Part shown: positions 1,433 to 29,116 of the stretch, piece after piece
Layout: each line of letters begins with the position of its first letter
How positions within the stretch are numbered: the stretch's first letter is position 1
Assembly: GCA_048941015.1 (NCBI GenBank)
Contig: JBHLNZ010000031.1
Span: 1 to 35,069, forward strand
Origin: Promethearchaeota archaeon
GTDB taxonomy: Archaea; Asgardarchaeota; Lokiarchaeia; Sigyniarchaeales; SOKP01
DNA: 35,069 bases
Reading direction: 5' to 3'
Notes under the pieces: generated by a model
What the model saw: only the letters and a program-made list of their open reading frames with translations
Database searches by the model: none
What the model was told of the DNA's origin: nothing
Made by a program: the position numbers and the translations under genes

Positions 1433-1676
1433 CGTGTTATCACCATTAATCGATGTAACTTAATATAAGAGTTTTAATGAATTTTTCTAAAACAATAAAT
1501 TTCGCTTCAATTAATATTCTAATTAATCAAAAAATGAGGTTCTTATTTAAATCTATTTAAACTCAAGTAAAAAATTAATAATCATTCACTGTCACTTCTT
1601 TTTAATTTTTCTAGGATGATATAACGCTCATTAAGAAATTAAATTTTTATTAAAAATTCTGAAAAGTTGATAGCTA

Positions 1677-1853
1677 ATGATGATTTGTCATTCAAATGAT
1701 CTTCTGGAGAATTGCTTGCTTACTTGTCCATTTTCTCATATATGCAATCTTCCAAAAATGGAAGATATATGTAATTTTCCAGAATATAAAGTTTGTACAG
1801 AATATGAAATTAAATTAAACAGATTAAAATCTACTACAAAAATTTTGTATTAA
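1677..1853 (+). CDS. Small Cys-rich hypothetical protein (58 aa; absent from the ORF track)
   Basis: Manual translation: MMICHSNDLLENCLLTCPFSHICNLPKMEDICNFPEYKVCTEYEIKLNRLKSTTKILY*. It has 6 Cys, fills an otherwise empty gap and is followed by a T-rich tract. Confidence 0.6.
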   Translation: MMICHSNDLLENCLLTCPFSHICNLPKMEDICNFPEYKVCTEYEIKLNRLKSTTKILY

Positions 1854-22254: not shown

Positions 22255-24498
22255 TTATTCAATTGGTAATTTCACAACAAACTTGCTTCCTTTGTATCTT
22301 CCTTCTGATTCTGCTCTAATTTCTCCCTTATGTAAATCAATGATCTCTTTTGTTATATATAAACCTAAACCAGATCCTTGAATATCTAAAAATTCATAAC
22401 CCTCACCATATCTTTCAATTTTTCCGAATCTGGTAAATAAAACATCCATTTCTTCTTTAGTTAGACCTATTCCGTTGTCAATAACAGAAAATTCTGCCCA
22501 TTTCTTTGTTTTTTTTAAAATAATGTTAATTTCACTCTCCGGGGGAGAATTTTTAATCGCATTGGATAATAAATTAAGAATCACTTGCTCAATTCTAATT
22601 CTATCAATATATATGGTTAAAGCCTCAGGAAGCTCAAGTATAATATTAACTTTTCTTGATTTAACTAAATATATCATCTCTTTTGCACTTTTTCTTATAA
22701 TTTCACTTAAATCCTCCGGTTTTTTATTTAATTGGAGTCTATCATATTCAATTCTCGTAATATCAATTAGATTATCTACTAAATATCTTAGTCTTTTTCC
22801 TCCTTTTTCAATTAATTGTATAATCTCTAGCATTTCTTGATTAAATTTATCTTTAAATAACGTTAAAAGAAGTTCTGCCCCTCCACTTACAGAAACCAGT
22901 GGTGTTTTGAGTTCATGGGATACTCGAGATATAAGATTCTTCCTTATAGTATCTAACTCTTTTAACTTTCTTATCTCTTCAGTAACGAGAAAATCTGCTT
23001 CTTTTCTCTGGGTAATGTCAGTAAATATTGCTTGTACATATACATTATCATCTATTCTAATTAAGGAAGCTTGTAAATTAGTCCAAATCAGACTTTCATT
23101 TTTCTTATATACTTGAACATCCACTCGATGAACTTTTTCTCCCTTTACGAACTTTTTGAATAAATTAAGTATTGTTGGTAAACTATTTGGATGTATAATA
23201 TTAAGATCTCTAAAATTGTTCCCGATCAATTCTTCTCTACTATATCCTATAATATTCTCTGTTGTTGGATTACAATCAATAATAATTCCTTTGGAGTCTA
23301 ATATAACAATTGCAAATGGAGTATTTTCAAACAATCCACGGAATTTTTGTTCCGATTCCTTTAATTTTTTTTCTAAATTTATGTTCTCAGTTACATCTAT
23401 AAATGTTCCATCAATTCTTATTGGCCAACCCTCTTCGTTTCTTATCAAATGTGAATTTAATTCGACGACAACTTTTTCACCCTTTTTGGTAAGAGCATTA
23501 CAGATATAATTTCGTGCTACCCCTTCCTTAACGATAAGATTTAGATATTCATTTCTATCTTCAGGTACTTGCCAAAAATCCGTAACATTTTTTCCTCTCA
23601 AATCTTCCGAAGGATCGTATCCCAGTATTATATTATGAGCAGTATTATGATTTAGCATTTTGCCTTCTAATGTAACTTGATAAAATCCTACATCTAAATT
23701 TTCAATTAAATTTCGATATTTGATTTCAGATTCCTTTAAATTTTCCACTGCTATTTTCCTCTCTGTAATATCTTCTGTATTAACGATTACTAAGTCAGGT
23801 TCAACAGAGACATAATTTACAGAAAGAAATTTCTCTTGATCTGAAATTCTAAATCTATAACACATCTCTCGTGTTATATGGAGTTTTTCATCAATACAAC
23901 GATTAAGATCTTCTAAAATATCAGGTCGATCTCGATATAATTCGGATGCTTTAATTCCTATATAATTTTTTACATTTCCATTAGTTATTTTCTCCGCAGC
24001 ATTATTGAAATCAACTAATATAAAGTTTTTATCAACCTTTTTCCATGTATAGGTAGGTATAGGACCCTCTTTATAAATTACTTTAAACATCTCTCCAGAA
24101 TCTTTAACTTTCTGACCTGCTTTCTTCCTCTCGGTTATATTAACTCCAATTCCTAAAATTGCATAAATTTTTCCTTCTTTTTCTAAAGGAATACCATAGG
24201 TTTCTATATAAATATAATTACCATCTTTTGCCTTGATTTTATATTCACTACGCTTAGATTGTTTACCTTTAGTATAAATCTCTTTTGTAACTTCAAATGC
24301 TTTTTTTAAATTGTCTTCATCAACTAAATCCATAAAGGAAATTTGAGGTATTTCCTCTCTCTCATATCCTAAGGTTAATAATGTTATATCATTAGCGTCC
24401 AAGAAATTCCCTTTTAAGTCATTTACATAAATTAAATCTAAAGAATGTTCGAAAAGATCGTGGAACCTTTCTCGTATCTCTTCTTTATTATACTCCAT
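22255..24498 (-). CDS. Cytoplasmic multi-PAS (about 4 PAS) sensor histidine kinase
   Basis: The protein is read from the minus strand: CAT at 24496-24498 gives ATG GAG TAT, and TTA lies at 22255, so the + label in the track is wrong. It has PAS repeats ending (D/N)IT(E/Q)RK, H-box SHELKTPL, NLLSNAIK, DNGIG and GSGLGL. Confidence 0.95.
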   Translation of the reverse strand: MEYNKEEIRERFHDLFEHSLDLIYVNDLKGNFLDANDITLLTLGYEREEIPQISFMDLVDEDNLKKAFEVTKEIYTKGKQSKRSEYKIKAKDGNYIYIETYGIPLEKEGKIYAILGIGVNITERKKAGQKVKDSGEMFKVIYKEGPIPTYTWKKVDKNFILVDFNNAAEKITNGNVKNYIGIKASELYRDRPDILEDLNRCIDEKLHITREMCYRFRISDQEKFLSVNYVSVEPDLVIVNTEDITERKIAVENLKESEIKYRNLIENLDVGFYQVTLEGKMLNHNTAHNIILGYDPSEDLRGKNVTDFWQVPEDRNEYLNLIVKEGVARNYICNALTKKGEKVVVELNSHLIRNEEGWPIRIDGTFIDVTENINLEKKLKESEQKFRGLFENTPFAIVILDSKGIIIDCNPTTENIIGYSREELIGNNFRDLNIIHPNSLPTILNLFKKFVKGEKVHRVDVQVYKKNESLIWTNLQASLIRIDDNVYVQAIFTDITQRKEADFLVTEEIRKLKELDTIRKNLISRVSHELKTPLVSVSGGAELLLTLFKDKFNQEMLEIIQLIEKGGKRLRYLVDNLIDITRIEYDRLQLNKKPEDLSEIIRKSAKEMIYLVKSRKVNIILELPEALTIYIDRIRIEQVILNLLSNAIKNSPPESEINIILKKTKKWAEFSVIDNGIGLTKEEMDVLFTRFGKIERYGEGYEFLDIQGSGLGLYITKEIIDLHKGEIRAESEGRYKGSKFVVKLPIE

Positions 24499-26369: not shown

Positions 26370-27266
<897 letters not shown>

Positions 27267-27383: not shown

Positions 27384-28166
27384 ATGATTAGAACTTATAT
27401 TTTTGATGATATAAGGAATAACTGGATAGAGGAAAATGAAAATTTATTACTTTATGACATATGTGCATTTTTAGATGAAGAAAATGAAAAGATTTATTTA
27501 TGGAAAGGATCAAAAACTAGAAAAGATAAATTTCAGAGAAGTTATAAATCAATTTCAAAAATTGTATCAGATACTAATAAGAATTTTCAAATTATAACAT
27601 TAAAAGAAAATCTACCCGATTTTGTTAAAAAAAGAGTAGAAAGCATGCTGGAAAATGCAATCAGAGAAGAGCAGTTCGAGAAGTATAAATTTTCAAAATT
27701 TACTACAATTAGATTATATTTTCTTTTTTTATTAATTGCAATAATACTTCCGCTAATTTCTATCATAAATTTAAGCTCTTTCTTATTTTGGGATATAAAT
27801 GGTGATAATTTCGTTATCGCAGCAAAAAATTATCGAAGTTGGCTTAACATATCTTACATCTTAATGGTAATTACTTTAATATTGTTTATTTTTTGCTTAA
27901 TCATCGGAATTTATGAAAGTGAAGATCAAGTCATTATTTTTTCGATAATTGGATTAATAGTTTGTATTGGTATAGTTATATATTTACAAGAAGGCATTTT
28001 CTTATTCTTATTTCAAGAAGGATTTACATCTTCAATTTATTTGGTTAAAAAAGTAGATCTAATAATATTTCTCATCCTCAATATAATTGGTGTAACCATT
28101 CTTGAAGCGCCTAATTTTTTAAAAATATTGTTTTTCATCAAAACTTATAGGAAATATCTTTTTTAA
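27384..28166 (+). CDS. Membrane protein with an N-terminal gelsolin-like domain and four TM helices
   Basis: The N-terminal ~90 aa carry LL..DICAFLDEENEKIYLWKGSKT followed by a long helix, matching the gelsolin-repeat pattern. The C-terminal half has four hydrophobic segments. Confidence 0.65.
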   Translation: MIRTYIFDDIRNNWIEENENLLLYDICAFLDEENEKIYLWKGSKTRKDKFQRSYKSISKIVSDTNKNFQIITLKENLPDFVKKRVESMLENAIREEQFEKYKFSKFTTIRLYFLFLLIAIILPLISIINLSSFLFWDINGDNFVIAAKNYRSWLNISYILMVITLILFIFCLIIGIYESEDQVIIFSIIGLIVCIGIVIYLQEGIFLFLFQEGFTSSIYLVKKVDLIIFLILNIIGVTILEAPNFLKILFFIKTYRKYLF

Positions 28167-28240: not shown

Positions 28241-29116
28241 ATGACAGAAGCCGCTAAAATACTTCCTACATTAGAAAAAGAAGACTTAAGAATTCTGATG
28301 GCAATTGAAGTAGGAATGAAGCGTTCTGAATATGTTAAATTACACGATATCAAATTTTATGCTCGTTATCCGATGGAAGAGACTTTATTTAGATTAAAAA
28401 GAGTTCATAAAAATGACTTAATTATTAGAGAAACATCCTTCGAAGTGGGATATACATTAAATTCAATAGGCTATGATGTATTAGCCCTACACAGCTTAGT
28501 GGAAAGAAGCATAATAAGCCAACTGGGACCCCTTATAGGAAAAGGAAAGGAGTCTGATGTGTATAGTTGTATGGATGATAATCAAAATATCTATGCGTTA
28601 AAAATTTACAGAATTGGTAGAACAAGCTTTAAAAATATTAAACGACTTCGAAGTTTTGTTGGTGAAAGGACCCATTTATCTTGGCTGTACGTTAATAGAC
28701 TTGCTGCTAAAAAGGAATTTAATGCTTTAAAAAGGATATACAAATTAAAATTGAATACTCCCAAACCAATAGCTTTCAATCGGCATGCTATAGTTATGTC
28801 TTATTTAAGAGGTAAAGAATTGGCACATTTTGTAGATATAAAATACCCAGAGAAAATTTTTAATAAAATCATCAAACAAATGAAACAAATCTTTCAAAAA
28901 GCAAAAATGATCCATGGAGACTTAGGTGAATTCAATATAATTTTAGATGAAAAAGGAAACATTTTAATAATTGATTGGTTACAATGGGTACCGTCAAATC
29001 ATCCTAATGCAAGATCCTTATTAGAAAGAGATATCAATAATATTTGTAATTATTTCTATAAAAAATATAATATCGATAGTAAACCAAAAGAAATAATTAA
29101 AAATTTTTATAAATAG
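28241..29116 (+). CDS. rio2: RIO2-family atypical Ser/Thr kinase (ribosome biogenesis)
   Basis: N-terminal wHTH (DLRILMAIEVGMK, GYDVLAL), GKGKESDVY, RIGRTSF, HGDLGEFNI and IDWLQ. Confidence 0.93.
   Translation: MTEAAKILPTLEKEDLRILMAIEVGMKRSEYVKLHDIKFYARYPMEETLFRLKRVHKNDLIIRETSFEVGYTLNSIGYDVLALHSLVERSIISQLGPLIGKGKESDVYSCMDDNQNIYALKIYRIGRTSFKNIKRLRSFVGERTHLSWLYVNRLAAKKEFNALKRIYKLKLNTPKPIAFNRHAIVMSYLRGKELAHFVDIKYPEKIFNKIIKQMKQIFQKAKMIHGDLGEFNIILDEKGNILIIDWLQWVPSNHPNARSLLERDINNICNYFYKKYNIDSKPKEIIKNFYK

Follow-up and report, generated by a model that had tools for sequence, protein, structure and literature searches.

What is a gelsolin domain doing on an integral membrane protein of an archaeon? 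This question is raised by a gene at positions 27384-28166 (+) of a 35,069-nucleotide (nt) stretch of DNA, which as a whole is called the window here (contig JBHLNZ010000031.1, positions 1 to 35,069, of the Promethearchaeota archaeon assembly GCA_048941015.1). The open reading frame (ORF, 27384..28166) starts with ATG and encodes 260 amino acids (aa) plus a stop codon. Its product, a member of a family that we name GelTM, combines an N-terminal gelsolin-homology head with a module of four transmembrane (TM) helices. An original prediction, made from the letters of the DNA, had described a cytoplasmic gelsolin fold held in the membrane, and the ORF is real, its translation containing all of the strings that were quoted. 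Such an architecture was, according to that prediction, not known to have been characterized, and literature searches found no relevant description of a membrane-anchored or transmembrane gelsolin, of the locus tag of the ortholog discussed below, or of a gelsolin together with archaetidylinositol. What is new here is the placement of a gelsolin domain on an integral membrane module.

The homology of the head is visible only with family profiles or with structure, because matches to the single sequence fall below threshold: on its own, the 260-aa protein passes no Pfam threshold, its best matches being MPK1_gelsolin_C at 0.07 and PDB 1rgi_G at 0.5. Profiles were made from three alignments, A1 (27 close sequences), A2 (48 broader sequences) and A3 (the N-terminal domain only, 23 sequences from fetched loci). 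Against the PDB, A1 matches gelsolin/villin at ~1e-4 and the Asgard protein ProGel (7c2f_B) at 8e-4; A2 matches villin at 7e-12, gelsolin at 6e-10 and ProGel at 4e-6; and A3 matches villin at 3.1e-14, gelsolin at 2.2e-10, CapG at 4e-7 and ProGel 7c2f_B, in one stretch, at 1.3e-7. With A3, 33 chains score E<=0.01, every one of them a gelsolin-superfamily member, and no Sec23/24 or cofilin chain reaches that value with either A2 or A3. The Pfam gelsolin family PF00626 is matched by 13 of the 27 close members (best E 2.4e-4).

The predicted structure leads to the same place. AlphaFold2 (AF2), run on A1, yields a model with a mean confidence score (pLDDT) of 86.3, which contains the head, four long helices and two small hairpins in loops on the same side; folded alone, the head has a pLDDT of 82.2. 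Within the gelsolin-homology core (aa 1-75; 27384..27608, +), which is supported by AF2 models, Foldseek, exhaustive structural alignment (VIA), profile matches and alignment column counts, the models place strands at 2-8 (3-8 in the A1 model), 13-16, 26-31 and 36-41, a long helix at 47-63 and a strand at 69-72 (69-71 in the A1 model). With the helix that follows, this is the order of the gelsolin-homology fold, in which a mixed central sheet packs against the long helix: four strands, a long helix, a strand and a helix. Among the 50 Foldseek matches to the PDB that are listed, all are of the gelsolin family, and the best of these is the complex of Thorarchaeota ProGel with rabbit actin (7c2f_B; E 1.5e-4, target-normalized TM-score 0.70). 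When the head-only model is aligned exhaustively to 48,161 PDB representatives (VIA), ProGel is again at the top (7c2f_D; Z 11.3, root-mean-square deviation 2.6 Å, 85/88 residues), followed by other actin-binding gelsolin domains, including those of the Loki and Heimdall 2DGels (Z 8.4-10.4), the gelsolin-like domains of Sec23a, Sec24b and Sec24c (Z 6.2-8.4), ADF/cofilin/twinfilin (Z 4.8-6.5) and unrelated folds (Z 4.3 or less). An ADF/cofilin identity for the head was considered and rejected, given these low Z scores (4.8-6.5), a W-x-G rather than a WP motif, and the lack of any cofilin sequence match. By sequence and by predicted fold, the head is a gelsolin-homology domain, and its nearest match is the Asgard ProGel type, which is Ca2+-independent. 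The gelsolin fold that had been proposed for this domain is present, as judged by family profiles (villin, 3e-14), by Foldseek and by VIA against ProGel (Z 11.3).

Gelsolin hallmarks (W-x-G, D25, Y38 and P78) are conserved within the head. Two residues, D25 and G42, are invariant among the 48 diverged members of A2, and W14 (40 of 48), E16 (44), H24 (42), D31 (37), Y38 (42), W40 (39, with Y in 8), P43 (31), G/A53 (46) and P78 (44) are widely kept. W40 and G42 form the W-x-G ("DWG") motif that follows a core strand in gelsolins and that Akil et al. contrasted with the WP of cofilin (PMC7444086). Basic residues are also conserved in the long helix, within its N-terminal half, and next to the membrane, where K102 is found in 34/48 members and R, K or H occupies position 105 in 45/48. 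D25 is aligned with what we take to be the Asp ligand of the gelsolin type-II Ca2+ site, a mapping that combines the known Ca2+ sites of gelsolin with HMMER alignments. Only this one of the two ligands is conserved, since the position of the partner Glu, G+7, is variable (K14/L7/E7/R6 in A2) and is K49 in the studied protein. In the same genome, the 2DGel protein has Glu at G+7 in both of its domains, and a ProGel-like ORF has Lys. Because the type-II Glu is not conserved, Ca2+ regulation of the kind seen in 2DGel or gelsolin appears unlikely. The invariant His-Asp pair (H24-D25) of GelTM heads, located at the Ca2+-ligand Asp position, is missing from the ProGel-like ORF.

The remainder of the protein carries the head into the membrane. 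The last helix of the gelsolin fold (aa 76-104; 27609..27695, +; AF2 helix 79-100/102) follows the conserved P78, which corresponds to the gelsolin "EP..F" position, and is prolonged as a charged stalk of ~22 residues. The stalk ends in a basic/aromatic juxtamembrane motif, KYKFSKFTTIR, and this flank is net positive. Four TM helices at about 105-135, 147-178, 181-201 and 223-259 are given alike by Kyte-Doolittle hydropathy and by the AlphaFold model. The first, TM1 (aa 105-135; 27696..27788, +; AF2 helix 106-135, pLDDT above 90), is predicted to run from inside to outside. It leads to outer loop 1 (aa 136-146; 27789..27821, +), a predicted beta-hairpin (AF2 strands 137-139 and 142-146) with a conserved W136 and few Lys or Arg (K+R). 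TM2 (aa 147-178; 27822..27917, +; AF2 and hydropathy) ends in a short acidic cytoplasmic turn, Y-E-S-E-D, in which, in the close subfamily, E178 is invariant and E180 is present in at least 90% of members. TM3 (aa 181-201; 27924..27986, +), with conserved S187, G190, G196 and Y200, is followed by outer loop 3 (aa 202-222; 27987..28049, +), a predicted short helix plus beta-hairpin for which the AF2 pLDDT is lower (66-74). Finally, TM4 and a basic cytoplasmic C-terminal tail (aa 223-260; 28050..28163, +; AF2 helix 223-259) contain D225, P243 and the sequence KTYRKYLF, and the tail has a net charge of +3.6. The N-terminus (MIRTYIFDDIRNNW...) is polar rather than hydrophobic, so the protein has no signal peptide. 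On both points, four hydrophobic helices and no signal peptide, the original prediction is borne out by hydropathy and AlphaFold.

The charges flanking the helices indicate the side on which the head lies. In A1, K+R averages 4.0 in the stretch immediately N-terminal to TM1 and 3.6 C-terminal to TM4, versus 0.5 in loop 1 and 1.0 in loop 3. In the broader alignment, 43 of the 48 members have exactly four TM peaks, and in 42 of these 43 the side of the head is the richer in K+R (mean 7.2 versus 2.4). Because of this positive-inside bias, together with the lack of a signal peptide, the head is predicted to be cytoplasmic, with both termini inside (N-in, C-in). This is the topology that had been foreseen, and the extracellular head that would have spoken against it is not what the analysis predicts. 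We regard the architecture and topology described here as close to certain.

The TM module, to judge by its conservation, is not a passive anchor. In A1 the mean pairwise identity is 63% for TM3 and 62% for outer loop 3 versus 49% for the gelsolin core; because these two segments are better conserved than the head in the close subfamily, the module should be more than a means of attachment. In A2 the identity of loop 3 (33%) is about that of the head (32%), and loop 3 is the most conserved segment of the TM module. Its motif is G-I-F-L-F-L-F-Q-E-G-(S/F)-T...Y-L-(I/V), or, in a longer form, GIFLFLFQEG(S/F)T..Y.I...D. Conserved positions of the module in A2 include W136 (36 of 48), G196 (42), Y200 (44), F208 (46), F210 (40) and Y219 (38). 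Thus, of the idea of a fold held in the membrane, the membrane attachment stands, but the notion of a mere anchor does not, given that in the close subfamily the TM part is the better conserved. Searches yielded no specific relative of the module: the structural matches to aa 100-260 are generic four-helix bundles, mostly de novo designs (Z 12-15), no Pfam family recurs for it across members, and in the ESM Atlas it matches only a cluster of Promethearchaeota hypothetical proteins (0.85). A resemblance to claudins or tetraspanins, which also have four TM helices and outer hairpins, was considered, but no such chain is among the matches and the confidence for loop 3 is modest.

GelTM is a family with a well-defined range. 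A word-indexed search found 28 proteins from Asgard metagenome-assembled genomes, all of 258-262 aa except one fragment of 225 aa, and when 1.84 billion representatives (50% clustering) were searched exhaustively with HMMER, 70 members were found. These 70 include a distant tier of proteins of 270-320 aa, only 20-28% identical, that align across both halves. The A2 profile was also used to scan 400 genomes of the phylum, and 131 have matches. Since full-length homologs of near-constant length recur in 131/400 genomes and among ~70 representatives, the GelTM ORF is not a chance reading frame. The matches are concentrated in the order of the source genome, whose families are designated f1 to f4: 111/134 genomes in f1, the family of the source genome, 1/1 in f2, 13/14 in f3, the family that includes Candidatus (Ca.) Lokiarchaeum ossiferum, and 4/4 in f4, compared with a single partial match in the ~246 genomes of all other families. 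GelTM is essentially restricted to this order (129/153 genomes), which belongs to the Lokiarchaeia and corresponds to the NCBI Promethearchaeales, where NCBI also places Ca. L. ossiferum. The NCBI organism labels of near-identical members disagree (Thorarchaeota, Hodarchaeota or Promethearchaeota); genome taxonomy assigns the source genome to the order that also contains Ca. L. ossiferum. The ortholog in Ca. L. ossiferum B-35 is NEF87_002464 (UYP46179.1), a 283-aa protein with the annotation "hypothetical".

Two clades, A and B, are separated (support 99/98) in a maximum-likelihood tree built from 33 full-length members. Clade A contains the studied gene and members from f1, f2 and f3, including L. 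ossiferum, and clade B contains members from f1, f3 and f4. As read from this tree, the two clades are ancient, and the architecture would predate the divergence of the order's families; the f4 members retain the head and four TM helices despite a very different composition. The source genome has a second GelTM gene, a clade B paralog of 267 aa, on another contig (G000:C38:5207-6636 with the enzyme gene described below; L027:5207-6007 and L027:6019-6636, respectively). Some paralog ORFs of ~490 aa were examined as possible fusions and proved to be two genes with stop codons between them; no longer fused forms of GelTM were found.

The two clades differ in their genomic company. A gene for a CDP-alcohol phosphatidyltransferase lies 9 nt after the second GelTM gene of the source genome. 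The best NCBIfam match of this enzyme is archaetidylinositol phosphate synthase (AIPS; NF040950), at 140 bits relative to an equivalog cut-off of 180 bits, a score far above those for the serine, glycerol and cardiolipin classes, and its best PDB matches are phosphatidylinositol-phosphate synthases. An AIPS-like gene adjoins second-tier GelTM genes in 23 of 25 fetched loci (among them L027, L031-L034, L042 and L046-L060), in three families and three orientations: in tandem in 16/16 f1 loci (five genera), divergently and ~300 nt apart in 5/5 f3 loci, and within 0.5-1.3 kb in 2/3 f4 loci; the one f2 match, which belongs to clade A, has no such neighbor (0/1). Among the rows of the tree, the adjacency is found in 15/16 clade B members and 0/17 clade A members. 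Genomes carry 2-4 AIPS-like genes, and in the source genome the copy linked to GelTM is not the top-scoring one. The pattern suggests that clade B GelTM and the AIPS-like enzyme form a functional pair that links a membrane gelsolin with inositol-lipid synthesis.

Several clade B loci have features of their own. In one genus (G149, L032:4693-5229), a gene for a Ras/Arf-family small GTPase is located directly 3' of the pair and a TBP gene upstream of it. In L. ossiferum, all that remains of the clade B copy is an ORF of ~85 aa that encodes a gelsolin domain by itself, with no TM helices (L043:about 1471-1746 (-)), and that is still divergent to an AIPS-like gene (L043:2187-2822 (+)), and in the closed genome G135 (L041) the equivalent stretch contains several in-frame stops. 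This state suggests either conversion between a membrane-bound and a ProGel-like soluble form or decay.

How does GelTM compare with the gelsolins already described? Akil et al. (2020) defined three Asgard architectures, ProGel, 1DGelX and 2DGel, all of which are soluble, bind to actin at the G1/cofilin site and regulate it (PMC7444086). Like GelTM, ProGel (Thorarchaeota, 7c2f) has a single gelsolin domain of ~85-90 residues, and besides being the best structural match it shares the W-x-G motif and the lack of the canonical type-II Ca2+ Glu. However, ProGel is a free soluble domain, whereas in GelTM the last helix of the head runs on into the conserved TM module; with another 160 residues, which make up four TM helices, GelTM is not a ProGel. 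In addition, the actin binding of ProGel is known by experiment, while that of GelTM is inferred by homology. In 1DGelX and 2DGel, as in GelTM, an extension beyond the core alters the function of an Asgard gelsolin protein (PMC7444086, PMC9433394). The extension of 1DGelX, a soluble protein of ~42 kDa, is domain X, a predicted coiled coil (PMC7444086), in place of which GelTM has a hydrophobic four-TM bundle; domain X was considered as a counterpart of the TM module and rejected because it is a soluble coiled coil. 2DGel has two domains, an LKDV/LRRV motif and Ca2+ sites, all three of which are absent from the membrane-integral GelTM. The source genome encodes one 2DGel, three single-domain-plus-extension (1DGelX-like) proteins and one ProGel-like ORF, and its two GelTM genes are the only gelsolin-domain genes whose products are membrane-integral. 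The 2DGel (G000:C15:45140-46180 (-); L001:721-1737), of 338 aa, has LKDV, the Asgard WH2-like motif, between its two domains and also contains an acidic linker; its C-terminal tail, CxxC...CxxC, resembles a zinc ribbon.

Among eukaryotes, gelsolin, villin, CapG and adseverin contain a domain homologous to the GelTM head (E down to 3e-14), but with 3-6 repeats, activation by Ca2+ and a soluble or peripheral location they are unlike GelTM. We know of no member of the eukaryotic gelsolin family that is an integral membrane protein. Eukaryotic gelsolins are nonetheless functionally tied to the plasma membrane through phosphoinositides (PMC6080781). The linkage of clade B to an inositol-lipid synthase-like gene parallels this tie.

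These comparisons bear on what GelTM may do. The source genome encodes a Lokiactin-type actin (442 bits; G000:C3:45763-46875) and three actin-related proteins. In L. ossiferum, Lokiactin filaments occupy the periphery of the cell and follow its protrusions (PMC9834061). Judged by its homologs, ProGel and the other Asgard gelsolins, the GelTM head could have Lokiactin as its ligand, a proposition that we consider evenly balanced. The head would then bind Lokiactin at the gelsolin/cofilin site and place actin at the membrane, so that filaments, filament ends or monomers would be kept at the inner face, for example, in the cortex or in protrusions. Because single gelsolin domains bind actin weakly, avidity may be supplied by confinement to the membrane and possibly by oligomerization of the TM bundle. 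The conservation of the outer loop points to a partner for the TM module as well, a further component of the membrane or surface, so that the protein might couple the outside to the actin inside. Finally, because clade B is encoded beside an AIPS-like gene, the family may work together with inositol phospholipids, just as phosphoinositides control eukaryotic gelsolin. Taken as a whole, the proposal is that GelTM is a direct transmembrane attachment for Lokiactin, in which the head caps, nucleates or binds the sides of filaments, the outer loop engages an external or surface partner and inositol phospholipids, the products of the AIPS-like enzyme encoded beside clade B, tune the activity. We tentatively give this proposal a probability of roughly 35%.

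Several observations weigh against actin as the ligand. Gelsolin-fold domains of Sec23/24 are, to our knowledge, not known to bind actin. The head evolves fast: along syntenic loci, GelTM homologs are 44-50% identical where Rio2 is 71-78%, the beta subunit of 2-oxoacid:ferredoxin oxidoreductase (PORbeta) 77-84% and LSm ~80% identical. There is no WH2-like LKDV/LRRV motif in the GelTM protein, and "FVKKRV", a candidate for such a motif in the linker, was rejected because it is not conserved across the family. The position on the long helix equivalent to Ile103 of gelsolin G1 is polar in GelTM; this objection is tempered by the finding that the binding of ProGel to actin is shifted by one helical turn. 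Even ProGel binds rabbit actin weakly, with a dissociation constant of about 337 uM (PMC7444086). In addition, a role unrelated to actin would account just as well for the tight pairing of clade B with a lipid synthase.

The Nature paper on L. ossiferum counted eight gelsolin-like proteins (PMC9834061), and its supplement includes an Asgard COG cluster, cog.006527, labeled "Gelsolin domain", without a Pfam match and right before a TFIIB cluster, which might or might not correspond to GelTM. The accessions of five gelsolin-homology proteins are given in a preprint on L. ossiferum motility; UYP46179.1 does not occur among them. GNAMCCOK_02484, the probable identifier of the ortholog (assigned from identifier offsets and a 54.8-kDa RtcB neighbor), does not appear in the part of the proteomics and co-immunoprecipitation (Co-IP) tables that was covered, and the authors of the preprint state that membrane proteins are under-represented in their Co-IP.

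The strongest alternative dispenses with actin. The head could serve a membrane complex that synthesizes or organizes polar lipids, specifically inositol phospholipids, as its cytoplasmic domain for regulation or scaffolding. CDP-alcohol phosphatidyltransferases would then have GelTM proteins as accessory subunits or as partners that bind lipids, and clade A would be a diverged copy with another membrane partner. The position of clade B beside the AIPS-like gene in 23/25 loci, three families and three orientations is in keeping with such a role, and the conservation of TM3 and loop 3 above that of the head would be expected of a protein-protein interface within the membrane. The conserved basic residues of the long helix and juxtamembrane segment could bind anionic headgroups, and Sec23/24 provide a precedent for the use of the gelsolin fold without actin. 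However, clade A, to which the studied gene belongs, is never beside an AIPS-like gene (0/17 tree rows), and by sequence and structure the head is nearest to actin-binding gelsolins, not to accessory domains of lipid enzymes. Furthermore, coupling to lipids and binding to actin are compatible, since eukaryotic gelsolin does both. We consider a purely lipid-directed role less probable than actin binding, to which it is the main rival.

GelTM might instead be a fast-evolving, lineage-specific membrane protein whose head is a relic, a folded cytoplasmic cap that binds no ligand. Its evolution is indeed faster than that of the neighboring genes, and no RNA record is listed for the locus, but among members only ~20% identical overall, D25 and G42 never vary and W14, E16, H24, Y38, W40 and P78 hardly do. 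Moreover, both paralog clades have kept the architecture from a time that predates the split of the order's families. All of this makes the explanation very improbable. Least probable of all is the alternative in which the head is a Sec23/24-type domain that recruits cargo or coats in vesicle or membrane trafficking instead of binding actin, which the original prediction had mentioned: the fold class is indeed shared (Z 6.2-8.4) and eukaryotic signature proteins related to trafficking are known from Asgard archaea, but the structural match is weaker than that to gelsolins (Z 8.4-11.3), profiles find 0 Sec23/24 chains at E<=0.01 versus 31-33 of the gelsolin superfamily, none is among the 50 Foldseek matches listed, and the zinc-finger, trunk, beta-barrel and helical domains of Sec23/24 are absent from this protein, whose 260 aa include no further soluble domain.

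The neighborhood of the studied gene is specific to its lineage. Upstream are the delta, alpha and beta subunits of 2-oxoacid:ferredoxin oxidoreductase (POR), of which the beta subunit (thiamine pyrophosphate-binding; 26370..27266, +; Pfam PF02775) immediately precedes GelTM and is conserved there in f1 loci. Downstream are the Rio2 kinase (28241..29116, +; Pfam RIO1 plus Rio2_N), then, on the opposite strand, a class-I methyltransferase, and further genes for an LSm protein, a GGACT-like protein and a metallophosphatase. PORbeta, GelTM, Rio2 and methyltransferase follow one another in this order in 13/14 informative f1 loci, where the GelTM homologs are 44-50% identical. In contrast, in L. 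ossiferum and a relative (f3), GelTM lies between TFIIB and an Eco57I-type methylase with no linkage to Rio2, and in a distant member of 21% identity (the P0077 locus) Rio2 is not adjacent either. Because it is absent from the family of L. ossiferum and from this distant member, the linkage to rio2 that had been singled out for a survey amounts to collinearity within f1, and Rio2 was rejected as a functional partner. The window as a whole is AT-rich (25-33% GC), and the DNA flanking GelTM has ~27% GC, a composition in which reading for promoters or terminators is uninformative.

Some further features of these loci may be recorded. A multi-PAS histidine kinase of 747 aa (22255-24498 (-)) lies between the gene for POR gamma and those for POR delta, alpha and beta, an arrangement conserved in L010 and L011. 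At the P0077 locus (L013:2719-5371, clade A), a UbiE-like methyltransferase gene on the same strand overlaps the start of GelTM by 20 nt, and an ORF of 518 aa without a Pfam match is found 3' of GelTM.

GelTM bears on how Asgard actin filaments are attached to the membrane and shape it; the actin regulators of these archaea that have been characterized so far (profilins, ProGel, 1DGelX and 2DGel) are all soluble. Judged from its sequence, GelTM is a candidate for the missing link between archaeal actin and the membrane. Since an ortholog, UYP46179.1, exists in the culturable Ca. L. ossiferum, the idea is directly testable. If the head does not bind actin, a gelsolin fold would still have been recruited to a role in membranes or lipids, which would inform how this fold has diversified, as in Sec23/24. 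The pairing of clade B with an AIPS-like gene raises the possibility that the relationship between gelsolin and phosphoinositides is older than eukaryotes. If the attachment of Lokiactin through GelTM is real, the family would represent a pre-eukaryotic module of actin, membrane and phosphoinositide that has no known integral-membrane counterpart among eukaryotic gelsolins.

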